Notes: a model not told the origin generated them from the letters alone. A stretch of DNA of 64,000 nt from an uncultured Oscillospiraceae bacterium (GCA_900546265.1 URCA01000015.1:1542-65541), one strand, 5' to 3'. Counted from the first letter of the stretch, positions 1,290-53,837 are shown. Made by a program: numbers and translations.

Positions 1290-3995
1290 TCAATCGGTTT
1301 CCAGCTTATCCAGCCGCAGGGTGGCCAGCTCCTTGGGCTTCAGAGAGAGGGCTATCCGGCCTTCGCCGATGTAGGTCTGTCCCTCTTCGCTCATGGTGGT
1401 CAGGCTGCCGCGGGCCGCCGCCGTCACGACCGCCGTCTGTTCGCTTTCGGAATAGTTGAGAAGCCGCAGGATAAGCCCCTGCCCATCCTCCGCTTTTTTG
1501 AAAGCGGTCACCAGAACGCCCTCCCCCGCGACCTCGACAGCCGGCGTGTTGTCCGCCACGCGCAGGGCCGCGTTGTCGTCCGGAAGATAGAACAGCTCGG
1601 ACAGGCGCGTGTCCTGTACGGCGGTCCGGCCGCCTGAGAATTTCTTGCGATCGCAGGCGGTGGCGTAGGCGAGCAGCGGATTGCGGAACCGTTTGGCAAC
1701 CTGCGGAAGCCCGGCGCGGACATAGCCGCCGGTGTAGGTATAAACGGCCAGGCGGCCCTCCAAGCGGCGCAGGCACTGGTTCTCCGGGCAGTCCCACTGG
1801 CTCCCGCCGATCTGCTCCAGCGTCTCCATGTTGCGGACAATGCTGCCCGTGGAGCGCACCATCGTGAAGGCGAGTGCCTGACGCTCATCCAAATGCTCGT
1901 ACTCATGCAGCCCCTCGGTCAGCACGGCAAAGCCCGCCTCCTCATCCTCCAGCAAGGCAAAGGACGTGTTGGGAAACACCGGGCTTTTGGTCGTCGGATA
2001 GCTGTCATGGATGGTGTGCGACACGATGTCGAAGGGGATATCCGCCGTGCTTATCTGCGAGGCGATGCCGGCGTGGAAAACCAGCCGCATCCGGTGATCC
2101 TTCGCGCGGTTGTCCAGCGTGTAGCCGACATGCAGCAGCGCGTCGCCCTTTTCGATGGACAGCGTCAGCTCAACCGTGCAGACGGCCAGCTGCTCCGCCC
2201 GCTTTTTCTGTGAAAAATCGTAGTAGGCGGGGACACACATCTCCCTCGTAATCCGGATCGCCTGCCGGTACGCGTTGTGTTCCAGCACCTCCACCGCAGC
2301 GGGGAAGTCCCGTCCCCAAAAGAAGGGCTCCCCGTTGTTCCAATACATATAGCTGTCGCCGTAATCGGCGGATTCTTCAATATCCAGAATATCCTCGTAC
2401 AGCCGCTCTGTCTTTTTATCGAGCAAATCGACGCGGCCGTCCTCGCCGACGGTTACCCGGATGCAGGCGTTTTCCATCACCGGCTCGCTTTTCTGCAGCG
2501 GCTCGAACAGCGCGGGAGTCCGCTCCGCCCGGCGGATGCGGTATCCCTTCGCCGCAAAGGGCTGCACCCCCTGCGCGTACAGATACAGCGTATACCGATC
2601 CACATCCAGAACGCCGGGGAGGTTTACGGGGGAAAACACGTCCCTTTGGGTGCACTCTTTGGAAAGCAGCGCGTATTCCACGGGGCTGCCCGCCGCGTCG
2701 GTGATGGTGAATCCCGCGAAGTCATCCGAGGCCGGAATGTCGACGACCGCTTTCAAAACGCCGGACTGCTCCGTTTCCGTGGAATTCACCGCCAGCAGAA
2801 TATAGCTGTCGGCGCTCTCCTCCGCCAGCTCCATGTGCTCCGCCAGCTCTCTCAGGCCGCGCGCGAGCATTTCATTCGTCACCTCGGACAACCGGGCGTA
2901 GTTATCCTCCATATGCCGGTGAACCTCGTCGCGGGAACAGCCGCATATGCTGTCGTGCGGGTGGTTCTTCATCAGGTTTTTCCACATGTACCGGAAATGA
3001 TCGAGCGAGTAGCTCTCCGGCGCGGCGCCATAGAGCTGCAGCATGGCGTACAGCGGCTCCAGCCGGCATTCCAGCATGTTCTGCGCGCGGACGTTGGCTG
3101 TCTTCAAGTAGCTGCGGGAGGACAGCGTCCCTTTGAGGAGCTTCAGGTCGCCGCCGTGACGCAGCTCCCCCTTATAGGTCTTCAGGGGAACCTGGTGTTC
3201 CTCAATATACGCCTGCACCTGACGGATATACGCCTCCATATGGTACTGCCGCACCGCGTAATCCTTTTGCAGCGTGTCCAGAATGGGAAGAAGGTTGTCC
3301 TGGGCCTCCAGATGATCCACACCGTTCATCAGCAGCAGGTAGGGGGTGACCGCCACCCCTTCGAACTGCTTTTCCACACAGTCCAGCAGCAGCTTCGATA
3401 CCTCGATGTCTTCGGAAAAGCGCTGGGCGTTGTTATACCAGAACGCCATATGTATCGCCAAAACCCGGCTGCCGTCGGCGCCCTCCCAGATAAACTCCGA
3501 CGGGGTGGTTTTGGTGATCACTTCCCCCTGCGGTCCCACCTCGTAATCCGCCAGCCCCCTGCCGAAAACGAAATTGTCCAGGCCGAAATTGTTCAGGATC
3601 TGCGGCAGCTGAGAGATGTTGCCGAACTGATCCGCCGCATAGCCCACCTTGCCGCAGTTTCCAAAAGACGCGGCGATGCGGCGCCCTTCCAGCAGGTTGC
3701 GGATGGTGGACTCTCCGCTCGTCAGATAAAAATCATTCTGCAGATACCAAGGCCCCACCACCAGCCGGCCCTCGGTGATGTACCGCCGCAGCGTTTCCCG
3801 GCGGGAGGGCCGGTACTCCAGATAATCCTCCAGCACCACCGTCTGCGCATCCAGGTGGAATATATACGCCGGATACTTCTCCAGAGTCGCCAGCAGGTGA
3901 TCGATGAGATCCACCAGCTTGAGCTTAAACCGTTCAAGGGGCATATACCATTCTCTGTCCCAATGGGTATGGGAAACCACACAGAAATACTTCAT
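1290..3995 (-). CDS. GH38 alpha-mannosidase, cytoplasmic
   Basis: 901 aa. The N-terminus MKYFCVVSHTHWDREWY is the GH38 signature (HTHWDREW). There is no signal peptide. RBS GAGGAG lies 8 nt upstream of ATG 3995. Confidence 0.85.
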   Translation of the reverse strand: MKYFCVVSHTHWDREWYMPLERFKLKLVDLIDHLLATLEKYPAYIFHLDAQTVVLEDYLEYRPSRRETLRRYITEGRLVVGPWYLQNDFYLTSGESTIRNLLEGRRIAASFGNCGKVGYAADQFGNISQLPQILNNFGLDNFVFGRGLADYEVGPQGEVITKTTPSEFIWEGADGSRVLAIHMAFWYNNAQRFSEDIEVSKLLLDCVEKQFEGVAVTPYLLLMNGVDHLEAQDNLLPILDTLQKDYAVRQYHMEAYIRQVQAYIEEHQVPLKTYKGELRHGGDLKLLKGTLSSRSYLKTANVRAQNMLECRLEPLYAMLQLYGAAPESYSLDHFRYMWKNLMKNHPHDSICGCSRDEVHRHMEDNYARLSEVTNEMLARGLRELAEHMELAEESADSYILLAVNSTETEQSGVLKAVVDIPASDDFAGFTITDAAGSPVEYALLSKECTQRDVFSPVNLPGVLDVDRYTLYLYAQGVQPFAAKGYRIRRAERTPALFEPLQKSEPVMENACIRVTVGEDGRVDLLDKKTERLYEDILDIEESADYGDSYMYWNNGEPFFWGRDFPAAVEVLEHNAYRQAIRITREMCVPAYYDFSQKKRAEQLAVCTVELTLSIEKGDALLHVGYTLDNRAKDHRMRLVFHAGIASQISTADIPFDIVSHTIHDSYPTTKSPVFPNTSFALLEDEEAGFAVLTEGLHEYEHLDERQALAFTMVRSTGSIVRNMETLEQIGGSQWDCPENQCLRRLEGRLAVYTYTGGYVRAGLPQVAKRFRNPLLAYATACDRKKFSGGRTAVQDTRLSELFYLPDDNAALRVADNTPAVEVAGEGVLVTAFKKAEDGQGLILRLLNYSESEQTAVVTAAARGSLTTMSEEGQTYIGEGRIALSLKPKELATLRLDKLETD

Positions 3996-4027: not shown

Positions 4028-4963
4028 TCAGCCAACCAGGCCGCTTCGCTCGATGCCCTGAATGATCTTGCGCTGCAGCAGGCAGTAAAACAGCAGCAGC
4101 GGCAGCAGCGCCAGGATGGTCGCCGCGTTGGCTTTGACCATGGTGTAGTACATTTCCTTGTTCCCGATGGACACCGCATTCATGATGGCGATGACATTGG
4201 GCAGCAGCTTGACCTCGCCCATGAGCAGATTCGAATAGAAGGTATCCGTCCACTGCCAGGCAAAGGAAAGGGAGAAAATCACGACAAAAATGGATTTGGC
4301 CATGGGCACCACGATGCGGAAAAAGGTGCGGTAGGTTCCGGAACCGTCCACATGGGCCGCTTCAATGAGCTCATCCGGAATCGAGCGGTAATATTGATAG
4401 GTGAGTATCACGAAGATGCCGGCGCGGAAGCTCAGCGTCGTGGCCGCCAGGATCGCCATCGGCCAGACGGTGTTGGTCAGCTGTACAGCCGATCCGGTCA
4501 GCCCCTCTATCAGCCCGAAGAAATCGAAAAACCGAAAGGAGGAATACAGCGGCAGCGATATGGTCTGAATGGGCATCATCATGGTGAACACCACCACGCC
4601 GATCAGCAGCTTGCTGCCCGGGAAGCGAAACCGCGCCAGCCCGTAGCCCACCAGGGCGGAGGAAACGGTCGCCAGCACCGCCACCACCACCGCATACAAG
4701 GTCGTGTGATAGAAGCCCTGTACATAGTCGGGCGTCTGCAGCAGCCCCCGGTAGATATCCAGCGTCCAGTTCTTCGGGATCAGCATGACGGTGGGATCGT
4801 ACATGTCGTCCAGCGACATGAAGGAGGCGAGGATTTTAAATAAGAAGGGATACAGAATCACATATGCAAAGCCGAGCAGCATCACGAACAGGCCGCATTG
4901 CACGACCAGATGGCCGGCCTTTTTTTCGAGCCGCCGTTTCGTTTTTTGGGACAGCCACGCCAT
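4028..4963 (-). CDS. Carbohydrate ABC transporter permease (MalG-like, CUT1)
   Basis: The track ORF 4028..5236 is trimmed to Met at 4963 (MAWLSQKTKRR...), whose ATG overlaps the upstream TAA by 1 nt. It has multiple TM segments and the EAA loop IEAAHVDGSGTYRTFFRIVVPM. Confidence 0.9.
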   Translation of the reverse strand: MAWLSQKTKRRLEKKAGHLVVQCGLFVMLLGFAYVILYPFLFKILASFMSLDDMYDPTVMLIPKNWTLDIYRGLLQTPDYVQGFYHTTLYAVVVAVLATVSSALVGYGLARFRFPGSKLLIGVVVFTMMMPIQTISLPLYSSFRFFDFFGLIEGLTGSAVQLTNTVWPMAILAATTLSFRAGIFVILTYQYYRSIPDELIEAAHVDGSGTYRTFFRIVVPMAKSIFVVIFSLSFAWQWTDTFYSNLLMGEVKLLPNVIAIMNAVSIGNKEMYYTMVKANAATILALLPLLLFYCLLQRKIIQGIERSGLVG

Positions 4964-5904
4964 TATCGCCCGCCCTCCTTTCGGCTTTTGCGATAGGCCC
5001 TGGTGAAGAGCCAGAAAAGCAGCAGCAGCGCCGCCATCAGCACGGCGATACACAGGAAATGGATCCACGCCATGGCGGAGGAATATCCGTATTTTCCTTT
5101 GGTAAAGGCCACGTATTTCAAATAATCCATCAGCCGGGTATTGTCCCGGGTCAAGCTCTCGATAAAGGTATAGACGACATTGACCAGCACGTAGGGGACC
5201 ACCATCGGCAGCGTGATTTTCCAAAAGGAAGACCACGCCGACGCCCCTTCCACCTTGGCCGACTCATACACCGAAACCGGAATCGACTGGATACCGGCGA
5301 GGAAAATCAGGATCTGCACCCCGCTGCGGTTGACCACGTCGATGATATTGTTGGCGGCGCCGGTGACCCCCTGAATAAGCGCCGGGCTGAAATTGAGCTG
5401 CTGCAGAATCAGCGACGCGTTGCCGAGCGCGCCCAGCACGGTGCTGTCCTGATTGGCAGTCGCGCTGTTCATGACGCTCATGACCATGTTTTCGCTGTCC
5501 ATCATGCTGAGCAGCCCGGTGCAGGCAATGACCGGCAGAAAGAACAGCGCGCGAAACGCGGTTCTTCCCCAAACCTTGGTGTTGAGGACGACGGCGATAA
5601 AGAGGGAAAACACCAGAATGATGGGGGCCGTGGTCACCAGCGACCGCAGGTCCTCCGCCAGATACTTGACAAAGTCGGCGTCCACCCGCAGGGCATAATG
5701 AAAGTTTTCCAGGCCGGCAAAGGTGAACTGCAGACCGTTCTGAACGCTGACGTCGGAAAAGGCAAACCGGACGCCGGAGACCATCATCTGGAGAAAAACA
5801 AAAAGCAGACCGGCCAGGAGAGGGGAAACAAAGACAAGACCCGCCCATTGAACCTTCCGGCGCCTGCCGCGCTTCCCCGCGCCGGCTACAAGTTTATTGC
5901 CCAT
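4963..5904 (-). CDS. Sugar ABC transporter permease (MalF-like, CUT1)
   Basis: 313 aa. AAGGAG lies 7 nt upstream of ATG 5904. EAA loop YESAKVEGASAWSSFWKITLPM and six predicted TM stretches. Confidence 0.9.
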   Translation of the reverse strand: MGNKLVAGAGKRGRRRKVQWAGLVFVSPLLAGLLFVFLQMMVSGVRFAFSDVSVQNGLQFTFAGLENFHYALRVDADFVKYLAEDLRSLVTTAPIILVFSLFIAVVLNTKVWGRTAFRALFFLPVIACTGLLSMMDSENMVMSVMNSATANQDSTVLGALGNASLILQQLNFSPALIQGVTGAANNIIDVVNRSGVQILIFLAGIQSIPVSVYESAKVEGASAWSSFWKITLPMVVPYVLVNVVYTFIESLTRDNTRLMDYLKYVAFTKGKYGYSSAMAWIHFLCIAVLMAALLLLFWLFTRAYRKSRKEGGR

Positions 5905-8521
5905 CGGTATGCTCCTTTTGTAAAACGGTATAGCTCTGCGCTTCCACTCGTATGGCCCCCTGCGCGTAGGCCGTGCGGTTGCAGTTCACGGCGATCTCCG
6001 CCCCGTTTTCGAAGGTGGAGACGGTGACGCCGTCGGCCAGCACCTCATGCGCCACCAGACGGGAGCCCTCCGCGGCCGCCAGCGCGTCGGCCACATAGGT
6101 GTACCCCTCCAGGGCCCGCTCGCGCAGATACTCAAAATCCACCGCGTAGTAATAGCTGTAAGCCGATTGCTTGAGGCGATCCACATTCTTGTACGCCAGC
6201 AGGTAGGTCGGTGACGTGCCACTGGCAATGCAGCGGAGCAGCTCGGTCTGTTTATCCGCCTTGAGATTGATGGGGGCGCTGCTGTAAGCCACGCTGCCCG
6301 AGAGTACCATCTGCACAAAGGGGACCGCGGCGGTTTCGCCGGCATAGCCCGAATGAGTCATGCCCAAATCGGTGACAGCCGCCGCATAGGGCAGGACGTA
6401 GGCGTTGGCCCCGTCAAAGGACAGCTTCAGGCGATCCTTCTGTGCGCCGAGCAGCTGCGCGAGCCGGGCGGCCGTCTGTTCCCGGTTGATCGGCTCCTTC
6501 TGCGAGAAATCGGAATTGAGATACCGGCCCACTTCGCCCAAGACCACCTCGCCGATCTTCTGCTCGCCGCAGTCGGCGAAAAAGCGTTCAAAAAAGCGCT
6601 CATACATTCGTGGGGAGAGACAGTACCGCGGGTTTTCATATTCCAGGGTGTCGGGCTGCATCCGCGAGACGGAGGCCTGTACCCGCTGAAGTGTGCGGGA
6701 GCTGTCCCTCCTGGCGGAAAACCCGTCAAACCATCGATCCTTACCGACAAACAGCATGTTGCTGCGCACCGAGAAGCCCACGTTCTCCGCGGCGCACCAG
6801 TCGAGCAGCTCGGAAAATCCTTTGGCTCCTCCCAGCGCGCCGGATAGCCGCACCCGGTTGGCGGCGCCGCTGTCCAGCCCGTATTTTTCATACCCCAGCA
6901 GGCTTAGGTGAATATCCTCCACACCCCGCTCCTGAAAATAGCGAACCATCTCCATGTTTTCCCGGTAGGAGGTAAATTCCGCGTCCGCCCGATAGCGGAA
7001 GCCCAGCAGGGACGTGGTATAGTCGGCGGTTCCCAGTGTCTGCAGCTGGAAAACCGGGCCGGCCTCCCCCTCTTGTCGCATCCCCTTTTCCAGAAGAATC
7101 GCGCGGTAGACCGCCGCCATCCCCGAATAGGACGCCTTCTCTCCCGTCAGAGGATAAAAAGCCAGCGTCATATCCGATTGGAAGCCATTTTTGTCGCATA
7201 AGTACACCCGGCGGGTCGACCCGTTGGACGCCACCTTGGCCTCCAGCGTCACATACTCCCGGCTCGTCCAGGAAAAGGTATTGTAAACCGTATAGTACCG
7301 GCCGTTCGGCTCCCCCAGCTTGGCGGTGATCTCGCTGCCGGCATCCCCGCTCTCTATGACAGCGAACAGGGCCGTGCGGTTGTTGCGCACGATGCCGAAA
7401 ACGGGCAGATAGTACGGTTCCCCTTCTGTCGGCTCGGTCTGGCTCGCCGCCCCGTCCCGGCCGTATACCTGGCCGGTGATAAGGGGACGGCGGTTGGGGC
7501 TGGGATCCTGCAGGGACAGGATGGCGCCGGAGCCGTCGGGGATGAACAGGTATCCCTCTCCCCCCTCCTGCGGCAGATCCGCGCCGAAATACTCGAGCAC
7601 CGTAATCGAGGCGAGCTGAAAGTGCTCCTCGTCGTAAGACACCGCGTCGTGCGGGAGAGTGACCTGCAGGCCGTCCGGTGTCAGCCGATACCGGATCGTG
7701 AGCTTGAAATTGGCAAATATCTCTTCTTTCACCTCGGTGTGGAACTGCCCGGCGACGGCTTCATACTCCTCACGGGTATAGCCCGCTTCCGCCATATAGC
7801 CGTCGATTTCGTTTTTCTCCTTACGGCTGACGTTGTCGTTGCAGATGTATAACGGCTCCGTCTTCAGCGGCGGGTAGGCGGCCAGCAGCCGCTCCCGTTC
7901 CTGCTCGTCGGACACGCTGGCCAGGTCGGTCAGGGAATAGAACAGGTTCATGCGCCGCTTCGCCCGCGAGCCGAGCTGGCCGGTGATGCGTTCATAGGTT
8001 TCCACCGTAAAGGCCGCCGGTACCAGCAGCTGTTTCTGCTCTTTGCCGATGGACATCTCGAAGGCCACGCCGTCGGGATACAGCTTTGCCGTATATTGTC
8101 CCAGCGCGGCGCAGTCGGGGCCCGACCACAGGGTGGCCGTCTGATTGTTGCTGTCAATGTAATGGATCGCCACCTGAGAAACCAGGCTGCTCTGGATATC
8201 CCCGGTGAAATTGGGATCACGGGCGGCGTTATACGGATTGGAGGTGAACACGGCGCCGGTGCGCTTATCCGCCAGTGCGACGGCCAGCGACTGCGGATGG
8301 AAGTACAGGCTATAGGCCTCGTTTTCCGCCGCCGGCCGCATATCCGCCAGCATGGCCGCCTCGCTTTCGTACGCGAAGCCGGCGGTGTTTTCCGCGCCGG
8401 CAATCGTCTCCAGCGGCGTCTCCATGTCGGCCGCGGCGCCCGTGGCCGCCTGATATCCCGGCGCACCGCCAAGCAGCACGGCCGCCGCCAGCAGTCCGCC
8501 TATCCAGCCTGTTCGCTTCAT
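5894..8521 (-). CDS. Large secreted protein of unknown function (possibly the DUF5696 family, from memory only)
   Basis: Start is set at ATG 8521 (MKRTGWIGGLLAAAVLLGGAPG, signal-peptide-like) with AGGGGGA 6 nt upstream. The track start at 8548 lacks an RBS. 875 aa with no motif I can assign. It sits between the Yip1 protein gene and a permease pair. Confidence 0.5.
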   Translation of the reverse strand: MKRTGWIGGLLAAAVLLGGAPGYQAATGAAADMETPLETIAGAENTAGFAYESEAAMLADMRPAAENEAYSLYFHPQSLAVALADKRTGAVFTSNPYNAARDPNFTGDIQSSLVSQVAIHYIDSNNQTATLWSGPDCAALGQYTAKLYPDGVAFEMSIGKEQKQLLVPAAFTVETYERITGQLGSRAKRRMNLFYSLTDLASVSDEQERERLLAAYPPLKTEPLYICNDNVSRKEKNEIDGYMAEAGYTREEYEAVAGQFHTEVKEEIFANFKLTIRYRLTPDGLQVTLPHDAVSYDEEHFQLASITVLEYFGADLPQEGGEGYLFIPDGSGAILSLQDPSPNRRPLITGQVYGRDGAASQTEPTEGEPYYLPVFGIVRNNRTALFAVIESGDAGSEITAKLGEPNGRYYTVYNTFSWTSREYVTLEAKVASNGSTRRVYLCDKNGFQSDMTLAFYPLTGEKASYSGMAAVYRAILLEKGMRQEGEAGPVFQLQTLGTADYTTSLLGFRYRADAEFTSYRENMEMVRYFQERGVEDIHLSLLGYEKYGLDSGAANRVRLSGALGGAKGFSELLDWCAAENVGFSVRSNMLFVGKDRWFDGFSARRDSSRTLQRVQASVSRMQPDTLEYENPRYCLSPRMYERFFERFFADCGEQKIGEVVLGEVGRYLNSDFSQKEPINREQTAARLAQLLGAQKDRLKLSFDGANAYVLPYAAAVTDLGMTHSGYAGETAAVPFVQMVLSGSVAYSSAPINLKADKQTELLRCIASGTSPTYLLAYKNVDRLKQSAYSYYYAVDFEYLRERALEGYTYVADALAAAEGSRLVAHEVLADGVTVSTFENGAEIAVNCNRTAYAQGAIRVEAQSYTVLQKEHTDGQ

Positions 8522-8558
8522 ATGGTTTCCCCCTTCGAGTCTAAACAATATCTCCCCG

Positions 8559-10685
8559 CTATGTCCGCAGAGAAAGCTCCGTACCGACGGCGGATACCAG
8601 CGAAATCATCCGGCCGATCAGACTGACGAAAATAAACAGCAAAAACAGAATAAACGCCATGCCCAGAACGGTCAGTATCGATACCAGCACATTCTTTCCG
8701 AGCGTGTAATCATGCACCGTGATCATGGAAAAGAAAATCAGCGCCGCCATCCAGATATACGCCACATTGGTGACCATGGCCAGGATCGGAAGCTCCTCGA
8801 GAATCAGGAAATGGCTCACCACCGTACAGGGCAGCACCAGCAGCGTGACCGGGAGGGTCGAGGTGCCCACCGCCACGTACACGTCGCGGAAGGAGCCCTT
8901 GCCGTCCATGAGTGAGGTGAAGCAGGTGTTGGCTATGCACCATAGAAGCAGCGGCGCCAGCAGATTCAGCACGCCGGATCCCACCGAGGCCTCTTCGTCG
9001 CCGCTCAGGAACCCGGAGGCCGCCGCCGCTATCGCCTGTGTCAGACAGGCCAGCGCCAGCAGGATGGTGGCGGAACTCACACCGCCCCGTTTTTCCCCCT
9101 TGAGCGCCCAATAGCCGTTGAACGGATGAAAAATCACATAAAAGCCCAGCAGAAGCGCATCGCGCAGCCCGCCGCCGGCCGAAGACGCGAGCGTTTTTTG
9201 ATTGTGCACGGCGATTTTGCGGAACACCCATACCGCCAGCAGAATCAGGATCAGAACCCCGAGCAGGATCCAGAGGCCCCAGCGCTGCAGGATCTCCTGC
9301 CGGTAAAGGCCGTAAGCCTTGGAATAGTACAGCTTGTTATTGATAAGCTCGAAGTACTTCATGGCGCCGGTAAGGTCTCCCTTCTCCATCAGCGCCTTGC
9401 CGACCCCGAGGTAGGCCAAATCGAAATTGTTGTTCTCGCCCAAAAGCTCGTTCCACAGCCCTTGTGCCTTATCGTACTCCCGGTTTTCCTGATAGCCGAT
9501 GACCTCGTCCAGCAAAGCCCCATAGGCGGTCTTGCGAAAAACCGTAATGGCCCCTGTTTCCGCGTCCAGCGCCAGCAGCTCGTCGCCCCAGGCGGCAGCC
9601 GCCGACAGTCTGGAAAAGAGCCCGAGCGCCTCGCCCTTGCCGCCGAAGGCAAACAGCAGATTGCCGGAGGAATCGTATGTAAACAGCTTATTTCCGTAGG
9701 AATCCAGCAGCATGTACATCCCGTTGTCCAGCAGAATCACCTTGGAAATCTGGGAAGGGCCGACCGCCTCATCCCCGTCATAAGGGCTGAAATTGATGTC
9801 GCCCGCCGGCGGGAAAAAGCCGTTTCGGCGCAGCACGTCGGTGCCGGCCGGGTTGATTTTTTTCACAGGGGCATAGGTGCTGTCCATGCTCCGGCTGTGA
9901 ATTGTGTTGTACAGCTCAAACCGATCGATGGACGAGCAGGTGACGTATACAAAGCCCTTGTGATCGATGGTCAGGCTGCTGTACTCCACCGGGACAAACT
10001 GGACGCTGCGCGCCAGCTGCTCCTCGGTCATAAAGGCGCGCCACAGCAGCTGGGCGGCATTGGACGCCACCCGCTGCGCCCCGATGAACCCCTGAAAGCC
10101 GCCGTCCCCGTCCAAAGCCATGACGCCCATATTGCTGTTTTTTGACACCACATAGAACTGGCCCGCCGCGTTAACGGCCACCGAAATCGGGTTGTATTTA
10201 AAGTTTTCGGGCAATACCTGCGCGGGAGGGCCGTCAATCGTTCGCAGATACCGGTTATCCTTATCGAAAACGACCAGCCGCCCATGATTGGTGTCGGCGA
10301 CAACCAGCCAATCCTCTTCGGTGATGAAAACGCCGGAAGGGCTGTCGAACGTGTCCTCCGTCCCATTGGGAAGGGTGAAAGGGCCGATAGTCCCCGTCAC
10401 CTCAAAATTCCGGTTCAGCAGGACGATACGGTTATTGCCGGTGTCCGCAATGGCAATAAGGCCCCGCTCCTCGTCCACCACCATGTCGCTCGGGTTTTTC
10501 AGAAGCGTCTCTCCAAACGCCGCGATTTTTTCAGCGGGCAGGTAGGCGTTCGGCGTTATCTGGACGCTGCTGTCATACGCAAACACGTACGTTTCATAGG
10601 GGGCCTCCGCCGCCGATACCGTCATCGTCCCGCACAGCACCGCCAGAAGCAGGAGAAACAGCATCCCCATTTTCAGCTTGTTCAT
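8559..10685 (-). CDS. Signal peptide + six NHL-like beta-propeller repeats + TPR-like segment + C-terminal multi-TM Yip1-like domain
   Basis: 708 aa. AGGAGGG lies upstream of ATG 10685. Repeated blades of the type LIAIADTGNNRIVLLN / LVVADTNHGRLVVFD / YVVSKNSNMGVMALD. The TPR-like stretch is EYDKAQGLWNELL...GDLTGAMKYFE. Five hydrophobic helices follow from about aa 470. Confidence 0.7.
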   Translation of the reverse strand: MNKLKMGMLFLLLLAVLCGTMTVSAAEAPYETYVFAYDSSVQITPNAYLPAEKIAAFGETLLKNPSDMVVDEERGLIAIADTGNNRIVLLNRNFEVTGTIGPFTLPNGTEDTFDSPSGVFITEEDWLVVADTNHGRLVVFDKDNRYLRTIDGPPAQVLPENFKYNPISVAVNAAGQFYVVSKNSNMGVMALDGDGGFQGFIGAQRVASNAAQLLWRAFMTEEQLARSVQFVPVEYSSLTIDHKGFVYVTCSSIDRFELYNTIHSRSMDSTYAPVKKINPAGTDVLRRNGFFPPAGDINFSPYDGDEAVGPSQISKVILLDNGMYMLLDSYGNKLFTYDSSGNLLFAFGGKGEALGLFSRLSAAAAWGDELLALDAETGAITVFRKTAYGALLDEVIGYQENREYDKAQGLWNELLGENNNFDLAYLGVGKALMEKGDLTGAMKYFELINNKLYYSKAYGLYRQEILQRWGLWILLGVLILILLAVWVFRKIAVHNQKTLASSAGGGLRDALLLGFYVIFHPFNGYWALKGEKRGGVSSATILLALACLTQAIAAAASGFLSGDEEASVGSGVLNLLAPLLLWCIANTCFTSLMDGKGSFRDVYVAVGTSTLPVTLLVLPCTVVSHFLILEELPILAMVTNVAYIWMAALIFFSMITVHDYTLGKNVLVSILTVLGMAFILFLLFIFVSLIGRMISLVSAVGTELSLRT

Positions 10686-10694
10686 CGTGCCCTC

Positions 10695-11558
10695 CTAATC
10701 CTTCATCCCCGAGGTAGCGACCGTTTCCATCACGTTGCTCTGCGACAACAGAAAAATGATGATGGGAACGACCATCATGATCACCGTGGCGGCGGCAGCC
10801 GTTCCGGTACGGGCGATCCCGCCGGACACGATTTGGGCCAGCGCGTAATTCAGGGTTTTCAGCTGCTCGCTTTGAATAAGCACGTTGGTTCCGGTATTCC
10901 ACAGATTCTGGAAAGAGAAAATGATCAGGGTCAGCCAGGCCGGCTTGACCAGCGGCATCACCATTCTCCAGAACACCACCCATTCGTTCGCCCCGTCGAT
11001 GTGCGCCGCCTCAATAAGGGTGTCGGGAATATTGGTCTCCATAAACTGCTTCATCAGGTACAGCCCGAGCGGCGCCGCGAAGGCGGGCAGAATCAGCGAC
11101 CAGTAGCTGTTGACCAGGGACAGCCGGCACATGATCAGGAAGGTGGGCACAAGCGTCACCGTCGTATTGAACATCAGCGACAGAACGATGATGTTGAAAA
11201 TAACGGCCTGACCCGGGAACCGGTGCTTGGCCAGCGCATACGCGCACAGCGACGAGAGAATCACATGGCCGAAGGTGCCCAGCACCGAGACAAACAGCGT
11301 GTTGAACAAATACCGGGAGAACGGCACCCAGCTGTCCCCCAGCACGCCGAACAGCTCCTTGAAATTGCGCAGGGTCGGGTTTTCCACAAAAAAGCGGGGC
11401 GGAAAATACCAAAGCTCGTTGAGCGGCTTGAGGGCGCTTGATACGGAATAGACCATGGGGAGAATCATGAAAATCCCCATCAGGCTCAGCAGGACAAAGA
11501 TGGCCGCATTTCCCTTGCGGGACCGGTTGAGCATCCGTTTTTTCACTCTGACAGACAA
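10695..11558 (-). CDS. Carbohydrate ABC transporter permease (MalG-like)
   Basis: TTG start at 11558 with AGGAGGG 6 nt upstream. EAA loop IEAAHIDGANEWVVFWRMVMPL. Confidence 0.9.
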   Translation of the reverse strand: MSVRVKKRMLNRSRKGNAAIFVLLSLMGIFMILPMVYSVSSALKPLNELWYFPPRFFVENPTLRNFKELFGVLGDSWVPFSRYLFNTLFVSVLGTFGHVILSSLCAYALAKHRFPGQAVIFNIIVLSLMFNTTVTLVPTFLIMCRLSLVNSYWSLILPAFAAPLGLYLMKQFMETNIPDTLIEAAHIDGANEWVVFWRMVMPLVKPAWLTLIIFSFQNLWNTGTNVLIQSEQLKTLNYALAQIVSGGIARTGTAAAATVIMMVVPIIIFLLSQSNVMETVATSGMKD

Positions 11559-11569
11559 GACTGACCCTC

Positions 11570-12526
11570 CTATTCCCCGACCCTGGATAAAAAGTGCTTA
11601 ATCAGCAGATTGGTGCCGACCATCATGAAAAAGAGAAAAACAGCAATCGCGGAGGCGTACCCCATCTCAAAACGGATGGTGCCGTAATCGGTCAGATGGT
11701 TCATGACCGTGTGGGCGGCATAATCGGTGGTGGGGTAGCCGCACAGCGCGGTGATGACCGGCCCCACGCCAAAGGAGGACGTGATGCTCATGACCGCGCT
11801 GAACATCAGCTGCGGCTTCATCATCGGCAGCGTGATGAACCACAGCTCCTGCCACCGGTTTTTGATGCCGTCCACGGCCCCCGCCTCGTAATAGCTTTTA
11901 TCGATCCCCTGGAACGCGGCGATCAGGGACAGGAAGCCGGTGCCCAAGCTCATCCATAGCGACACCAGAATCACGATGATCAGCACCGTATTCGCGTTTT
12001 GCAGCCATTGCACCGGCTGGTATATCAAGCCGAGCTTCAGCAGCAGGCTGTTGACATAGCCATAGTCGTCCCCGCTGAACAGCACCGTCCAAATCAAATA
12101 CACGTTGCCGGAAATGGAGGGGGCGTAGAAAACCAGCGTGACGAAGGCGCGCACCTTGGGGGTCAGCTCATTGATAAACCAGGCCAGGCACAGGCTCAGC
12201 AGATAACCGCCCGGCCCCAGGATGGCGGCGAGTACAATGGTGTTCTGCAGCCCTTTAATAAAAACCGTATCCTGAAAGAACAGGGTCGAATAGTTGCTAA
12301 AGCCTACAAATTCCGGCGGCTCCAGCACATTGAAAGACGTGAAACTCAAAACCACCGCGATCAAAACCGGCAGCACCGTGAACAGGACAAACAGCAGCAG
12401 GTACGGCGCGACGAACAGATACGACACCTTATGCTTGTTTATCGCGCTGAACAGGCCCTGCGGTTTGGCGCCCGGCCTTGGCAGCGCTTTGCTCGTATTC
12501 AAAGGGCATCTCTCACCTTTCCTCAA
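11570..12526 (-). CDS. Sugar ABC transporter permease (MalF-like)
   Basis: EAA loop YEAGAVDGIKNRWQELWFITLPM. The start is uncertain: TTG at 12526 or in-frame TTG at 12502. It overlaps the end of the binding-protein gene. Confidence 0.85.
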   Translation of the reverse strand: MRKGERCPLNTSKALPRPGAKPQGLFSAINKHKVSYLFVAPYLLLFVLFTVLPVLIAVVLSFTSFNVLEPPEFVGFSNYSTLFFQDTVFIKGLQNTIVLAAILGPGGYLLSLCLAWFINELTPKVRAFVTLVFYAPSISGNVYLIWTVLFSGDDYGYVNSLLLKLGLIYQPVQWLQNANTVLIIVILVSLWMSLGTGFLSLIAAFQGIDKSYYEAGAVDGIKNRWQELWFITLPMMKPQLMFSAVMSITSSFGVGPVITALCGYPTTDYAAHTVMNHLTDYGTIRFEMGYASAIAVFLFFMMVGTNLLIKHFLSRVGE

Positions 12527-15347
12527 ATTCCGCCTGCTTACGGGCCAGCTCGAAGTTCAGCTCCGCAATATAGTCGCCGAGCACCTCCGCCGGTTCCTCC
12601 GCCATGCTCTGGGTACCGGAGGCGTTGTATACCCGGTTGAATGCGAACGTAATGATACGCGGCAGATAGTAGCTTCCCGGCACCTCGGGAACGGTTTTGA
12701 CCTTCTTCAGCTGCGTCGTCAGGGCCGTGTATTCCTCCCGGCTCCACGACATCCGGCCCATGGCCTCCCAATTGGCCGTCGCCACCTTGCCGGCCGGGCC
12801 CAGCACGCTCTCCATCTCCATGGCATAGCGGCTCTGCGTGCCGGTTTCGGTGAACCATTTCAGGAATTCCCAGCCCGCTTGCTGGTTTTGGCTCCCGCGC
12901 AGCAGCATGGCCGCCGTGCCGTTGCCCACCGAATAGCGGCGGATTTCTCCGTTTTCGCCGGGCGTGCCGGGCACCTCCACCATCTTCCAGCGCCCCTTGA
13001 TCTCCGGGGCGAAAACCGTCAGCTGGTTGTATTGGGTGTAATCCTGTACCGCGCAGGGCATCTCTCCCGAGCGGAACCGGTTAGCAAAATCAAAGGTGGG
13101 CGGCAGCCCGTACAGACTGAAAAATTCCGTCAGCTGGATGAAGGAATCGATGGCCGTGTTGGAATTCAAATTGGTCTTTTTAAAGTCCGGCGTATAGAAG
13201 CTGCCTTCGTTCTGATACAGGAACATGGCGTAGCTGTACAGGTCGTGAGGCAGCCCCACCGTCAGACCGTCCTTTTGAAGAATGGCCGCCACTTTGATGA
13301 AATCGTCCCAGGTCTCGGGCGCCGAAAGTCCATATTCCTCAAAGATATCCGTCCGGTAGAAGAACATAAGAAACGAAAAGGTCTGCGGCAGCGCATAGGT
13401 TTTTCCCTGGTAGGTATAAGGAACGCTGGCGCTGGCCGGAAACCGCTGTGCCACCTGCGCATAATCGGGGAACTGCGACACATCGGTCACCGCATTGCGT
13501 ATGGCATAGTTGATGGGCTCGCTGGACGGATTGTCCAGCACCACATCGGGCGCCAGGCCGGCGAGCACCGACTGCAGCAGGGTGCCCTGCGCCACGGTTT
13601 CCAGCTGAACGCCGGTCTGATACTGCGCCGAAAAGGACGAATCGATGAGCCCGCGCAGCACTTCGGCTTGATCGCGTCCGGCCTGTGTCCATATTTTCAG
13701 CGTCTTATCATACTGCGCGTCGCCCATTTGCCCGAGGGAGCTGTAATCCGCCGTGAACGAGTGGAAAAAGCAGGTCAGCCCGAACCAAAGGTCCTGAAAA
13801 AAGCCGTCCCGCGGCGCGGCGTAAGCGTCTTGCCCCTCGATAAAAATCTGATCCAGCAGCAGCGGCTGACTCATGGCGGACAGAAGCCAAGACCCCATCG
13901 CGCCCAGATTAGATTTGAAATTTTCAAGGGTTTTGGCGATTTCCTTCGGCTTTTTCGCCATGCGGTCGAGCTGAAAGATGATTTTCTTCAGCACGGAGGT
14001 ATAGCTGCCGTTGCTCCCGGCCGCCGTATCGATCGCATCCACCGCTTCCTGCAGCTTATCCCGCTGGACAGCCATGGCGGCGATTTCATCGGGAATCAAG
14101 CCCTCAAACCCGTAGTCCCGGTACGGGTCGGGAGAGGTGCCGGTTATCCGGACGATGCGGCGGTAGATGGTGTTGAGCTCGGACACCGAGTCTTCGATTA
14201 CGCCTACCATTTCGGCCACGTCGCCGGCCGTCGCTTCCAGCGTCAGGGTGTGTTCCCCCTCTTCCAGATAGAACAGGTAGGGGGTTCCTCCCTCTCCAAA
14301 CCGTTCCACCTGCCAGTCGGAGGAATAGGCAAAGCGGAGGCGCCCCGCCTGCTCGAACGGCAGCTCATCGTCCAGCAGCAGCTTCCGGCTGGTGAAGATG
14401 CCGTCCACAAAGCTCTGCTGGAATCGCACGCCTATCTGATACAGTCCCGAGGTCTTTACATGAAAGGTCCAGGTGACGCTGTCCCCGATCCGGGCCCAGT
14501 TGTTGCCGCCGAGCGCGTTGAGCCTCAGAACCTTTCCCGACTGCGGCGTGGTGACGGCGGAACTCCGATCGGTGACTGGCAGAATCGTCTGGGCGTTTTT
14601 GTAGCGGAGCTTCTCGGCCTCAATCACAATCGGCTCCGCGCCGCTGGCCGGAGCCGCCCCGGCCTGTCGGTGCTCTTCCAGGTAGTCCTGGTAATCGACA
14701 GGCGGCTGATACGCCGCCAGCCGGACGGAGGCGATGGCGATTTGCCCCTTGGCTCCGGTAAGCTCCAGCGTATGGCTGCCCTGGCTTAACCCGAGAAAAT
14801 ACGGGCTGGTGCGGTATCCCGAAGGATCTGCGAGGCAATAGGTTTTCCAGAGAAACGCCTCTTTCACCTCCGGCTTCTGGTCGTTGCCGGCCGCGTTCGT
14901 CGGGAAATCCTCCTGCGTCTGGGTATAGCTGCGCGGCAGCGACAGCACCGTGACATCCTCAAACGGGGTCTTTCCGTCCAGGCGGAAGGACAGCTCGAGG
15001 TTGCCGCTGCCGGCCTGGGCGGCCATGTACTGGATTTCCAGAACGTAATAGGCGTCTTCCGGCGCTTCCAACGACCAGACCGCCGTTTCGCCCTCGGACA
15101 GAAGCGCCGCCGTTTTGCCCGCATGCTGCGAAACCGTCACACCCTGCGCCGTCTCTATGGCCGGTATAATGGCCGCCTTCGCTGACGGATAGGACGCGAA
15201 CGGCTGCCAATAGGCGGCGTAGCTCTTCCCCGTCCCGGCCGGGGCGGGTTCCGCTGCGGAGGAAACCGGAAGCGTCCCCATCAGCAAAAGAGCCGCGGAA
15301 AGCGCGGAAACCAGCCTGTTTGCTTTACCTCTCAACCTCATGGTCAT
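12513..15347 (-). CDS. Very large (944 aa) extracellular solute-binding protein with N-terminal beta-sandwich (CBM-like) domains
   Basis: Signal peptide LVSALSAALLLMGTLPVSSAAEP. The N-terminal ~400 aa contain two CBM6/35-like segments (VWSLEAPEDAYYVLEIQY..., VTWTFHVKTSGLYQIGVRF...). The C-terminal ~430 aa look like a family-1 sugar-binding protein. It lies directly upstream of a permease pair. An alternative start is ATG 15341. Confidence 0.7.
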   Translation of the reverse strand: MTMRLRGKANRLVSALSAALLLMGTLPVSSAAEPAPAGTGKSYAAYWQPFASYPSAKAAIIPAIETAQGVTVSQHAGKTAALLSEGETAVWSLEAPEDAYYVLEIQYMAAQAGSGNLELSFRLDGKTPFEDVTVLSLPRSYTQTQEDFPTNAAGNDQKPEVKEAFLWKTYCLADPSGYRTSPYFLGLSQGSHTLELTGAKGQIAIASVRLAAYQPPVDYQDYLEEHRQAGAAPASGAEPIVIEAEKLRYKNAQTILPVTDRSSAVTTPQSGKVLRLNALGGNNWARIGDSVTWTFHVKTSGLYQIGVRFQQSFVDGIFTSRKLLLDDELPFEQAGRLRFAYSSDWQVERFGEGGTPYLFYLEEGEHTLTLEATAGDVAEMVGVIEDSVSELNTIYRRIVRITGTSPDPYRDYGFEGLIPDEIAAMAVQRDKLQEAVDAIDTAAGSNGSYTSVLKKIIFQLDRMAKKPKEIAKTLENFKSNLGAMGSWLLSAMSQPLLLDQIFIEGQDAYAAPRDGFFQDLWFGLTCFFHSFTADYSSLGQMGDAQYDKTLKIWTQAGRDQAEVLRGLIDSSFSAQYQTGVQLETVAQGTLLQSVLAGLAPDVVLDNPSSEPINYAIRNAVTDVSQFPDYAQVAQRFPASASVPYTYQGKTYALPQTFSFLMFFYRTDIFEEYGLSAPETWDDFIKVAAILQKDGLTVGLPHDLYSYAMFLYQNEGSFYTPDFKKTNLNSNTAIDSFIQLTEFFSLYGLPPTFDFANRFRSGEMPCAVQDYTQYNQLTVFAPEIKGRWKMVEVPGTPGENGEIRRYSVGNGTAAMLLRGSQNQQAGWEFLKWFTETGTQSRYAMEMESVLGPAGKVATANWEAMGRMSWSREEYTALTTQLKKVKTVPEVPGSYYLPRIITFAFNRVYNASGTQSMAEEPAEVLGDYIAELNFELARKQAEFEER

Positions 15348-15421: not shown

Positions 15422-16786
15422 TCAGCTCTGCCCGCTCTTTCTCCGGCGCAGGTATACCGCCAATACGGCCGCGCCGCCGCCGAGGACGACAACCGCGATG
15501 CCCACGACAATCCAGATAACCGGATGGCCGGACGGCTGGCCCACGGCCTCCTGTGTGGAGGAGGGATCTTCCCGCGAACCGGTGGTCACCGCGGCTCCGC
15601 TCGTCGTCGGTATGTCCGAGGAAGCCGGTTCCGTTTGCGGCGTCGATTCCGTGGAGGCTTGCGTCGTCGGCGCGGAAACCGGCGGCTTGACCGTCGTCCC
15701 CTTGGTGGGAGCCGTGTCGGTGGCCTTGGTGGTGGCTTTGGTGGTCGGCTCGGTTTTGTAGGTGGGCTTCACATTCGGATCGCCGCCCAGCATCCGCTGC
15801 ACCGCATAAAAGATGGGCTTCGGCTCGCCGATGGTCCCGTCCCGCGAACAGGAGACAAAGCCGAAATGCGCCTCTCTCGCTTCGATATTCTGATCATCCA
15901 GAAAATACAGCTCGTCAAGCAGCTCGTAGTAAATAAACCCGATAATCCGCTCCTCGTTGTAGCAGTAATGCATCCCGGCAAGCAGCCAGTTCCAATCGGA
16001 TAGCGGCGAATGGGTGTTGTCTTCATTCGACTGCACATTGGCCTCGCAAATCAGGAATTCGTGATGCGGGAAGGCTTTCTTCAGCGGATCCATCAGCTTT
16101 TGAAACGAGCCCATGTCCTGGTACCAGTCGGGGCCGACAATGTCCCACTCCAAGCCTCTTTCCAGCAGCGCCAACAGAAAGCCATAGTGGACATAGGAAA
16201 AGCTGACCACCGTTTTGGCATCCTTGTTGACACTGCGGATCGTGGTCAGGGCGGCGTTGAATTTCTCATACCACTCGTCAACCACCTTGGGATCGTAGTG
16301 CTCCGGCTTAGAGCCGTCGTATTTATAGGTGGTGCCGCTCTGCTCGAGCGCCACAATGTCCACCTCGCCGAATACCTGTATGTACTTGATAAAGCCGTAC
16401 TGGCTGCCTTTTTTGTAGCGGCCGGCCACGATCTTGGCCCGGTTGGCCACATCCTGCGGGGTGCCGGACGTATCGTCCATCACCAGCATGACCTCCATGC
16501 CATAGGCCTGGATTTCCGCCACCATCTTGTCCAGATAGTTGAGCATGGACATGTTGGTGGGGTTATAGTTCAGCCGGTAAATGTCGCATCCCATCTGCGC
16601 GGCAAGGCGCACCTGCTCTTTGTACGTGCGTTCCGGGTACGCGGGATAGGCGCTGTTGTGTCCGCCGATGCCCCACTCAAAATCCTCCCGATCCTTAAGC
16701 AGCGCGCCCGCCGATGCCGGAACAGCCGCAAACAGGGAGGAAACCAGCAGCAGGATCGTCAGACAAATGATACTCGCTTTTTTCAT
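15422..16786 (-). CDS. Clan-GH-A-like TIM-barrel hydrolase paralog 1: signal peptide, Thr/Pro-rich linker, C-terminal TM anchor
   Basis: 454 aa. MKKASIICLTILLLVSSLFAAVPASA. Candidate acid/base VFGEVD and nucleophile ICEAN. The tail is ...TKATTKATDTAPTKGTT...VIWIVVGIAVVVLGGGAAVLAVYLRRRK. Its ATG overlaps the upstream TGA (ATGA). Confidence 0.6.
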   Translation of the reverse strand: MKKASIICLTILLLVSSLFAAVPASAGALLKDREDFEWGIGGHNSAYPAYPERTYKEQVRLAAQMGCDIYRLNYNPTNMSMLNYLDKMVAEIQAYGMEVMLVMDDTSGTPQDVANRAKIVAGRYKKGSQYGFIKYIQVFGEVDIVALEQSGTTYKYDGSKPEHYDPKVVDEWYEKFNAALTTIRSVNKDAKTVVSFSYVHYGFLLALLERGLEWDIVGPDWYQDMGSFQKLMDPLKKAFPHHEFLICEANVQSNEDNTHSPLSDWNWLLAGMHYCYNEERIIGFIYYELLDELYFLDDQNIEAREAHFGFVSCSRDGTIGEPKPIFYAVQRMLGGDPNVKPTYKTEPTTKATTKATDTAPTKGTTVKPPVSAPTTQASTESTPQTEPASSDIPTTSGAAVTTGSREDPSSTQEAVGQPSGHPVIWIVVGIAVVVLGGGAAVLAVYLRRRKSGQS

Positions 16787-17724
16787 GCCAAACCCTCTCT
16801 GTTCGGATACTGGTCGCGGATCAGCTCCTGCACCCGATGATACACCGGCTTTTTCTCGCCGATGTGGCCTTCGGCGTCGCAGGTGACAAAGCCGAAGTAC
16901 GCTTCTCTGGGATCGCTGTATCCGCTCAAATACACCTCGTCCAGCAGCTCATAAAAGAGGAAGCCGATCACCTTGTCGTCCTGATAGCAGTCTTCCATGC
17001 CGTCGTACAGCCACTGCCACCGTTCGGCCGGCGAATCGCTCGCATCGTCCCCGGCCCGGATATTCGACTCACAAATGATGTAGTCGTATTCCGGGAACAG
17101 CTCCTTAAGCGGGTCGAGCAGCTCGGAGAACGGCCCCATGTCCTCGTACCAGTCGAGCCCCAGGATATCCCAGGTCAGCCCCCTATCCCGCATGCCGAGC
17201 AGAAAGCCGAAATGCAGATGGGCGATGCTGACCACGATGCGGCTGTCGGTGTTGACCGCCCGGATGGCGTCAATGGTGGCCTTCATCTTCTGATACCAGC
17301 GATCCAGAATCTCCGGCGTAAAGTGCTCCCGCTCCTGCCCGATAGGCGTATCCTTAGGGAAGGATTCGCAAAGCGCGCCGCAGTCCTGTTCGCCGAAAAT
17401 CCGGAAATACCGGATAAACCCATGGGGCGAATCCTTGGTATACCGCGCGGCAATCGGCCCCACCAGCGCGGCGTCCTCTTCGGGGGACAGGCTGTAATTG
17501 TCGGTGATCAGCATGACATCCATGCCCTGCGCCTGCACTTCCGCCACCATTCTGTCCAGATAGGCGAACTCGTCCTCGGTCACCGGGCAGTAGTTGAAGC
17601 AGTAGATTTTGCTTCCCAGCTCCGCAGCCAGCCGGATTTGCTCTTTATAATAGGCTTCCGGATAGGCCTTGTACGTCCGGTTATGCCCGCTGATCCCCCA
17701 CGACCATGCTTTGCTCATTTCCAT
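16783..17724 (-). CDS. Clan-GH-A-like hydrolase paralog 2, with no signal peptide (cytoplasmic)
   Basis: 313 aa, collinear with paralogs 1 and 3 (WGISGHNRTYKAYPE, IFGEQD, ICESN). The start is ATG 17724, or more likely ATG 17718 given GGAGGAA spacing. Confidence 0.6.
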   Translation of the reverse strand: MEMSKAWSWGISGHNRTYKAYPEAYYKEQIRLAAELGSKIYCFNYCPVTEDEFAYLDRMVAEVQAQGMDVMLITDNYSLSPEEDAALVGPIAARYTKDSPHGFIRYFRIFGEQDCGALCESFPKDTPIGQEREHFTPEILDRWYQKMKATIDAIRAVNTDSRIVVSIAHLHFGFLLGMRDRGLTWDILGLDWYEDMGPFSELLDPLKELFPEYDYIICESNIRAGDDASDSPAERWQWLYDGMEDCYQDDKVIGFLFYELLDEVYLSGYSDPREAYFGFVTCDAEGHIGEKKPVYHRVQELIRDQYPNREGLA

Positions 17725-17736
17725 ATTCCTCCGCGT

Positions 17737-24425: not shown

Positions 24426-24459
24426 AATACATTCCTCCCTCAATAAATTGAAACGGATT

Positions 24460-25566: not shown

Positions 25567-25624
25567 TTTGTCTCCCCCCTTATTGGTATGTTCCAATTTT
25601 TCAGCCACTTCTTAATTCACCCAT

Positions 25625-25653
25625 ATTCTAACATTGGCTTTTTTGTATGTCAA
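25625..25653 (-). promoter_or_regulatory. Sigma-70-type promoter for the regulator/operon
   Basis: On the minus strand: TTGACA (25653-25648), a 17-nt spacer, then TAGAAT (25630-25625). Confidence 0.5.
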
Positions 25654-25961: not shown

Positions 25962-26054
25962 CATCTATTTCACCCATTTTGTTTTTGGCCTCTCACCGGG
26001 ATCCCCTTCGGCGGACTCCACACGATTCGTGCAGCATGGCCGGAAATAACACAA

Positions 26055-26082
26055 GCCCCGGAAGTCAAATGACTTCCGGGGC
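26055..26082 (-). terminator. Rho-independent terminator of the 5S rRNA
   Basis: 12-bp stem GCCCCGGAAGTC-aaat-GACTTCCGGGGC, followed on the minus strand by TTGTGTTATTT. Confidence 0.7.
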
Positions 26083-26089
26083 TTGCGAT

Positions 26090-37264: not shown

Positions 37265-37284
37265 GTCGTTGCTCCTCTCAATGT

Positions 37285-39092: not shown

Positions 39093-39096
39093 GTGA

Positions 39097-53827: not shown

Positions 53828-53837
53828 AGAAATCTCC

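Follow-up and report, generated by a model that had tools for sequence, protein, structure and literature searches.

Within a 64,000-nucleotide stretch of DNA from an uncultured Oscillospiraceae bacterium (GCA_900546265.1 URCA01000015.1:1542-65541), hereafter the window, we analysed a cassette of genes in which two pairs of sugar-importer permeases enclose an NHL/TPR/Yip1 membrane protein and a secreted protein of the DUF5696 family. Open reading frame (ORF) calls together with Pfam/NCBIfam scans placed all cassette genes on the minus strand, co-directional and closely spaced, within a run of minus-strand genes that extends without a break over bases 269-25608. In order of transcription, they encode a giant solute-binding protein (SBP) of 944 amino acids (12513-15347), permeases A1 (11570-12526) and A2 (10695-11558), the NHL/TPR/Yip1 protein of 708 amino acids, our scaffold candidate (8559-10685), the DUF5696 protein (5894-8521; PF18952, E 1e-146), and permeases B1 (4963-5904) and B2 (4028-4876, its start set at the ATG at 4876). 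The DUF5696 protein is 875 amino acids long if translation begins at the ATG at 8521, as are its near-identical relatives in the database, and 884 if it begins at a TTG (5894-8548). The stop of the binding-protein gene overlaps the start of A1 by 14 nucleotides and that of the DUF5696 gene overlaps the start of B1 by 11, which suggests translational coupling, and the remaining gaps within the cassette measure 9-86 nucleotides. No convincing intergenic terminator was found in the cassette, terminator-like sites being no commoner there than in shuffled controls, and a promoter scan of the window stayed at chance level bar one strong promoter-like site at 25625-25653, upstream of the GntR/LacI-type regulator gene (24460-25608, minus strand) that comes first in the transcription order of the run. 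An earlier note on this DNA had described two proteins of no assigned role embedded between two permease pairs in a packed and partly overlapping unit, and every gene that it listed is present; it had fitted the second permease pair into 5894-15347, and B1 and B2 actually lie below 5894 (4028-5904).

All four permeases matched PF00528 as well as UgpA/UgpE/MalF/MalG models, and EAA-type motifs were found in all of their translations (YYEAGAVDG...ITLPM in the EAA region of A1). A1 is of the MalF/UgpA type (BPD_transp_1, E 2.4e-8; UgpA-like, E 4e-20) and A2 of the MalG/UgpE type (E 2.4e-9; UgpE-like, E 1.5e-28), with B1, a divergent MalF/UgpA-type protein (E 5.5e-6; UgpA-like, E 1.4e-9), and B2, again MalG/UgpE-type (E 4.6e-13; UgpE-like, E 1.2e-20), forming the second pair. 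A1 and B1 are 26% identical, as are A2 and B2, and a recent tandem duplication of the pairs was therefore ruled out. As for membership in the CUT1 family, an SBP_bac_1-fold binding protein and EAA-loop permeases are present and a MalK/MsmK-type ATPase is not. Read from their domains, the cassette genes encode two separate type I (CUT1) ATP-binding cassette (ABC) importers without an ATPase gene of their own: importer A, predicted to consist of A1, A2 and the 944-residue binding protein, and importer B, predicted to consist of B1 and B2, with a conventional lipoprotein binding protein encoded nearby. Importer loci free of an ATPase gene are usual in those Firmicutes that share one ATPase. One distant cassette, L163 (1950-3059, 14132-17840), carries a MalK-type ATPase gene immediately upstream of its giant binding protein and two exporter-type ABC genes (ABC_membrane plus ABC_tran) after its B pair; such exporter-type pairs are among the commoner flanking families (5 of 74 loci).

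The giant binding protein is, as had been anticipated, about twice the usual size and equipped with a carbohydrate-binding module (CBM)-like domain. PF01547 (SBP_bac_1) covered only residues 578-838 of its 944 (E 1.8e-19), and a PDB sequence search aligned residues 546-908 with the entire sugar (oligosaccharide)-binding protein 5ysb of Listeria (E 1e-11). When a profile of the first 510 residues, made with 11 orthologues, was compared with the PDB, it matched the CBM35 of a cycloisomaltooligosaccharide glucanotransferase (5x7g, E 4e-7), the CBM35 of CsxA (2vzp, E 5e-3) and, weakly, CBM6. The protein is thus laid out as a signal peptide without a lipobox, a beta-sandwich (putative, being suggested by repeat-like sequence), a CBM35/CBM6-like module, a helical region and the SBP_bac_1 domain. 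By a simple and permissive signal-peptide/lipobox pattern, which makes all percentages rough, the giant binding protein lacks a lipobox in ~81% of homologues (with a cleavable signal peptide in some of these and an apparent N-terminal anchor in others), the small binding proteins are lipoproteins in 81%, and the DUF5696 proteins fit the lipobox pattern in about a third (28/82), ~60-65% being without one. The small binding protein of the window would be the 539-residue lipoprotein at 20277-21896 (minus strand; lipobox LAMAAC), for which a Pfam scan returned no match. In 50 of 82 loci a member of its class stands beside the cassette (phmmer, E<=1e-5), mostly following B2 directly or directly preceding the giant binding protein, and its relatives in other loci are annotated as SBP_bac_1; it is probably the receptor of permease pair B.

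The arrangement is not peculiar to this genome. A motif-based scan of one genome per species returned at least 596 stretches, of which at least 586 were confirmed as relatives, and the best 80, from Bacillota and Treponema, were studied with 10-kb flanks, six-frame ORFs of these loci being searched with the window proteins and ORF-boundary artefacts corrected by hand. The order giant SBP-A1-A2-NHL/TPR/Yip1-DUF5696-B1-B2 was common to the loci wherever the contig was long enough, and the recurrence of YIP1, DUF5696 and a very large binding protein, which the earlier note had mentioned for Paenibacillus and Clostridia, was borne out in 80 loci from genomes and in 5 others from metagenomes or genomes. 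Gene-call tables gave the same order around DUF5696 relatives at 39%, 26% and 21-25% identity. The scaffold gene stands directly upstream of the DUF5696 gene in every locus and B1-B2 directly downstream in every locus, which suggests an invariant core, scaffold-DUF5696-B1-B2, of four genes (five where the scaffold is split). Among the 85 contexts examined, none had DUF5696 outside the cassette. Carriers include Paenibacillus, Cohnella, Bacillus, Lachnospiraceae, Oscillospiraceae, Mahella, Defluviitaleaceae and three Treponema metagenome-assembled genomes (MAGs), and several genomes hold two cassettes (e.g., L047 and L057). Co-occurrence of these genes is essentially obligate across two phyla; its absence outside this genome, which the earlier note had named as grounds for refutation, is thus decisively contradicted. 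An exhaustive profile search at E<=1e-30 put the DUF5696 family at 4,304 clusters at 50% identity. The host is an Anaeromassilibacillus species: Anaeromassilibacillus sp. SJQ-5 has an annotated protein that matches the scaffold at 99% identity, and more than 100 assembled contigs carry near-identical copies. In a scan of longer versions of the scaffold, of DUF5696 and of the binding proteins, no informative additional domain turned up, nor any fusion of cassette components. Overwhelmingly, the arrangement is beyond chance.

We next turn to the two embedded proteins, for both of which the absence of a described role, as put forward previously, agrees with a literature search that found no paper mentioning DUF5696 or PF18952. 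The predicted make-up of the first, an NHL propeller, a tetratricopeptide repeat (TPR) stretch and a five-transmembrane Yip1 domain, was upheld by Pfam, AlphaFold2 (AF2) and Foldseek. NHL (PF01436, E 1e-12) and Yip1 (PF04893, E 2e-9; residues 516-682, scoring 38.1 bits where the cut-off is 28.6) both scored above the Pfam cut-off, with TPR_16 weak. In the AF2 model (predicted local distance difference test, pLDDT, 77), a signal peptide is followed by a six-bladed propeller (~41-385), four TPR-like helices (387-447), a long helix with one transmembrane segment (451-500) and a helical Yip1 bundle (507-707), and the long helices of this bundle are consistent with a five-helix Yip1 membrane domain. 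The top Foldseek matches of the propeller were the NHL propellers of TRIM71, Brat, Thin and the PknD-derived Pizza (E 4e-18 to 1e-11; template modelling (TM) score on target ~0.75-0.79), so that the modelled propeller resembles binding-type NHL domains rather than enzymes. A lactonase- or lyase-type propeller was considered and ruled out, the nearest structures being binding-type NHL and the SGL/gluconolactonase Pfam matches in relatives being weak or faint. Between the propeller blades, residues 252-310 fall below a pLDDT of 50, and within them the segment 271-296 (consensus ..LN..G.D.L.R.G....GD) is conserved among orthologues of ~30% identity; this loop may be a partner-binding element that becomes ordered upon binding. 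About half of the loci have, instead of a single scaffold gene, an NHL/TPR/transmembrane gene (~500 amino acids) with a Yip1 gene (~208 amino acids) next to it, and since the two parts occur either fused or as neighbouring genes, their association is implied. The sole bacterial Yip1 precedent documented in our literature search is YknW, a Yip1 protein reported to modulate how the YknXYZ ABC complex of Bacillus is assembled (PMC4887032).

The second embedded protein proved to have the glycosidase-like barrel that the earlier note had proposed to look for. The protein is secreted, and its AF2 model, built with 60 homologues (mean pLDDT 91; predicted TM score 0.86), shows a beta-sandwich, a (beta/alpha)8 barrel and a second beta-sandwich, plus a helical insert of ~90 residues at 173-259, i.e., the three-domain fold of GH129 and GH101. 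In a Foldseek search against the PDB, GH129 enzymes came first (E 1e-28 to 1e-22), headed by the Zobellia 3,6-anhydro-D-galactosidase 5opq (E 1.5e-28) and including Bifidobacterium NagBb (5wzp, E 6e-24; TM ~0.7 on target), and were followed by GH101 endo-alpha-N-acetylgalactosaminidases, GH36 and GH31. At the sequence level, a single-sequence search against the PDB was marginal (best GH129 E 0.68), and a DUF5696 family profile against PDB sequences recovered GH129 chains at E 2e-11. We then recovered the full NagBb gene from gut metagenome contigs by means of a 68-residue fragment and aligned it locally with hhalign, which paired DUF5696 residues 371-854 with NagBb residues 165-628 (probability 98%, E 6e-14; 97-98% over two runs). 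A 136-residue Zobellia GH129 fragment had zero matches in a large protein database, and a profile of the second barrel half returned nothing relevant from the PDB.

Judged by fold and profile, DUF5696 is a remote homologue of the GH129/GH101 alpha-retaining glycosidases and not a member of GH129: the three-domain barrel fold is present, family-level sequence similarity is absent, identity is 11-12%, and Pfam keeps the family separate as PF18952. It was not filed as GH129 because family-level similarity failed and the mapping of catalytic residues was ambiguous; a confident match to an already characterised enzyme family, which the earlier note had said would undo its proposal, was in this sense not found. 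The most invariant motifs of the family lie in the N-domain (GY[LIM]F[IVL]PDGSG, with D329; YGxD356; LPVFG; IExGD), and among these LPVFG and the IExGD Glu have aligned counterparts in NagBb. By eye, GVMIPNS of NagBb resembles PDGSG, lying outside the aligned region. The invariant R680 corresponds to R454 of NagBb, and a VPxY..H segment is common to both. In related families, N-domain loops reach into the active site. Position 671, near the aligned nucleophile, is Asp in 58 of 83 cassette members (70%); among the 60 close homologues, the share with Asp is 90% or more. On these sequence grounds, the sugar-binding pocket of DUF5696 is probably kept, and hydrolysis would be a plausible activity.

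Around the cassette, the flanking genes are reshuffled from locus to locus while the cassette order stays. Pfam enrichment over the flanks of 74 loci gave GH38 (7/74) and GH43 (6/74) as the commonest families, next to AraC regulators, CBM6, alpha-galactosidases (GH36/27), GH2, GH53 and esterases (CE2). Of the mannan, N-glycan and rhamnose-containing substrates suggested in the earlier note, GH38 as the commonest neighbour gives a weak hint, set against its presence in only 7 loci amid otherwise diverse families. In the window, a GH38 alpha-mannosidase-like gene lies directly downstream of B2 (1290-3995, minus strand); its product carries four Pfam GH38 domains and no signal peptide, is mannosylglycerate-hydrolase-like (E 8e-145, below the curated cut-off), and is probably a cytoplasmic finishing enzyme. 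Right after it, a URO-D-like gene (uroporphyrinogen decarboxylase/MtaA-like; 269-1273, minus strand) ends the gene run.

Upstream of the giant binding protein, three minus-strand paralogues of 454 (15422-16786), 313 (16783-17724) and 812 amino acids (17737-20175) share a domain of ~300 residues at 45-48% identity, which bears a faint similarity to GH53/'Glyco_hydro_cc' (best PDB match a GH53 galactanase, E 0.05). The 812-residue protein also shares repeats of ~150 residues, without a Pfam match, with an 821-residue protein that has a C-terminal membrane anchor (21978-24443, minus strand). In a relative locus (L001), similar genes include one that encodes a dockerin and another that gives a weak DUF5722 match. 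From these sequences, the proteins at 15422-20175 and 21978-24443 possibly represent another uncharacterised glycosidase family and a new binding repeat.

Farther along the window, a strong terminator-like hairpin lies at 26050-26087, G+C content passes from ~0.57-0.62 over 1-24 kb to ~0.48-0.53 over 24-40 kb, and a serine-recombinase-like ORF (26424-27533) has Recombinase and Zn-ribbon domains and no N-terminal resolvase match. A second sugar-uptake locus (35498-46740) encodes a 588-residue binding protein, two permeases and an AraC regulator, beside a 2,236-residue protein with CarboxypepD_reg/PEGA-type repeats and a chagasin-like inhibitor domain, and is followed on the plus strand (47060-51571) by a GH78-like alpha-L-rhamnosidase with a six-hairpin domain and then a GH36 alpha-galactosidase. 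Conjugative-element genes occupy parts of 52090-63985, among them a type IV coupling protein (52090-53385), a Toprim/DUF3991 primase-like protein (53838-54968), an 864-residue MobL relaxase fused to Sel1 repeats (55011-57605) and a VirB4/TraG-like ATPase (61312-63462).

Taking these data together, we propose that the cassette encodes a surface machine for the capture, trimming and import of glycans, built around the Yip1/propeller protein as a scaffold, a proposal to which we give an even chance of being right. The Yip1/transmembrane part would sit in the membrane beside the permeases, as the YknW precedent makes conceivable, and the extracellular propeller and TPR would serve as docking surfaces that retain the DUF5696 protein, otherwise without an anchor, on the cell surface, perhaps along with the giant binding protein. 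A polymer would be gripped by the CBM modules and have alpha-linked sugars trimmed or cleaved off by DUF5696, and two classes of product would enter through importers A and B, both drawing on one MsmK/MsmX-type ATPase whose gene lies elsewhere. Degradation would be completed in the cytoplasm, in this genome by GH38 and other enzymes. Because the flanking carbohydrate-active enzymes vary and a genome may hold several cassettes, the data suggest a generic platform whose specificity differs between copies. Of the capture or processing of a polymer coupled to import that the earlier note had envisaged, the domains, the conservation and the glycosidase fold lend support, and the weaker parts are cooperation with the transporters and catalysis by DUF5696. 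A bolder version, which we regard as a tentative and on the whole doubtful extension, holds that the seven or eight products form one supramolecular membrane complex, with Yip1 bridging the two importers and the propeller/TPR docking the enzyme and the CBM-bearing receptor above the transport pores; it would be a Gram-positive counterpart of the utilisome, DUF5696, its catalytic centre rearranged, would be the founder of a new glycoside hydrolase family, and bacterial Yip1 would gain its first role in nutrient import.

Several observations weigh against the proposed machine. Pfam scans found no ABC ATPase (ABC_tran) gene among the window ORFs, and the flank enrichment pointed to no single substrate, the families being so diverse. 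Three loci depart from the rule that the giant binding protein and the A pair stand upstream: L034 and L082, from the same MAG, have a small SBP, the scaffold, DUF5696, B1 and B2, and in L050, which has two inserted genes, the giant binding protein and the A pair do not adjoin the scaffold. Synteny by itself could stem from block inheritance. The remaining points concern catalysis. D435 and E478, which we take to be the nucleophile and acid/base of NagBb (an Asp and a Glu do stand there in the recovered sequence), find no clearly conserved counterparts: D435 aligns with G665 or Y667, depending on which of two hhalign runs is used, in a low-confidence strand-4 stretch, and the position aligned to it, with the same low confidence, is Gly/Ser/Ala or variable across the family. 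E478 is aligned at, or no more than one residue from, D703, a position acidic in 41 of 83 members, and H520-D521 aligns with H741-G742, the Gly invariant and residue 741 a Ser in the window protein. D671 is replaced by Asn in 19 of 83 cassette members. Furthermore, the clade of the window protein has undergone the replacements W544Y, N546K, D730T, H741S and E766A, at positions where the remaining family members show 83-98% conservation, yet it keeps the full cassette.

These residues are the ground for a rival reading that we consider rather unlikely, in which DUF5696 is a non-catalytic, glycosidase-derived glycan binder that together with the propeller feeds importer B as a surface receptor or chaperone, the CBM-bearing binding protein feeds A, and other, variable flank enzymes do the cleaving. 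The unconserved catalytic positions, a sub-clade that carries N671 and K703 together, and the loss of family-conserved polar residues in the window clade all favour it, as do the concentration of the most invariant residues in N-domain pocket motifs, consistent with a kept sugar pocket, and the many bona fide glycosidases that the flanks supply. Against it, the low confidence of the strand-4 alignment means that the nucleophile could be shifted, D671 remains Asp in most members, and in the window protein positions 663, 671 and 703 are all acidic; the three-domain enzyme architecture is kept in full in a model of high confidence, and the retention of an 850-residue protein by ~4,300 clusters would be expensive for a mere binder.

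More sceptically, there may be no machine at all, only two independent importers, a secreted enzyme and an unrelated membrane protein that are co-inherited or transferred as an operon block. In polysaccharide-utilisation loci, transporters and enzymes are commonly encoded side by side without forming physical complexes, the two permease pairs are old and distinct, each with its own binding protein, and the three exceptional loci lack the A half beside the remainder. We nevertheless find this explanation improbable: order and content are invariant down to ~21% identity and across two phyla amid reshuffled flanks, whereas utilisation loci normally shuffle at such divergence, DUF5696 stood within the cassette in all 85 contexts, a Yip1 domain acting alone has no plausible part in sugar use, and the secreted components are usually unanchored. 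Least credible to us, with only a slim chance, is that the NHL-TPR-Yip1 protein is a glycan sensor or regulator that gates the transporters rather than a scaffold for DUF5696. NHL propellers do act as extracellular sensor domains in bacteria, the PknD-derived Pizza is among the Foldseek matches, and the conserved low-confidence loop could be ligand-responsive; however, Pfam and the AF2 model give the protein no cytoplasmic output domain, its chain ending with the Yip1 helices, and dedicated cytoplasmic regulators (GntR/LacI, AraC) are encoded alongside.

The cassette is carried by abundant hosts, including gut and rumen Lachnospiraceae and Oscillospiraceae and soil Paenibacillus, and, for all its at least 586 loci and ~4,300 DUF5696 clusters, its DUF5696 and Yip1/propeller proteins have had no described function. 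Were the surface machine real, the picture of Gram-positive glycan foraging would shift away from loose secreted enzymes and lipoprotein-dependent importers, the large DUF5696 family would gain a function, probably as a new CAZy family, and bacterial Yip1 domains would acquire a first physiological role in uptake. In any case, the cassette offers an easily recognised marker for the annotation of carbohydrate loci in Firmicutes.

Among known systems, the closest to DUF5696 are the GH129 enzymes (the alpha-N-acetylgalactosaminidase NagBb of B. bifidum, 5wzn-5wzr, and the enzymes of Zobellia galactanivorans, 5opq and 8rzg-8rzk) and GH101, which have the same three-domain architecture; DUF5696 differs from GH129 in its low identity, in ~200 extra residues, the 173-259 insert among them, and in keeping the nucleophile, acid/base and His-Asp positions of NagBb at best in part. 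We know of no report of GH129 enzymes as parts of such a cassette. The YknWXYZ system of Bacillus likewise encodes a Yip1-domain membrane protein together with an ABC transporter, but its YknYZ is a MacB-type exporter with a membrane-fusion protein, acting in toxin resistance, whereas the cassette has CUT1 importers; to our knowledge, YknW has no propeller or TPR ectodomain. To the Sus-like utilisomes of Bacteroidota the likeness is a functional analogy only, that of surface capture, enzyme and transporter as one unit, the complex being hypothetical here: utilisomes belong to the outer membrane and are TonB-dependent, whereas the cassette would operate at the cytoplasmic membrane through ABC importers, and Pfam scans found no SusC/SusD homologues among the cassette or neighbouring proteins. 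With the Gram-positive CUT1 utilisation loci (MalEFG/MsmEFG), the cassette shares a binding protein, an EAA-loop permease pair, a locus without an ATPase gene, and adjacent sugar regulators and glycosidases. It differs from them in its two permease pairs in a fixed layout, in its double-sized, non-lipidated and CBM-bearing binding protein, and in the obligatory addition of the NHL-TPR-Yip1 and DUF5696 genes. The cassette is, in sum, an uncharacterised variant of the Gram-positive polysaccharide-utilisation loci.

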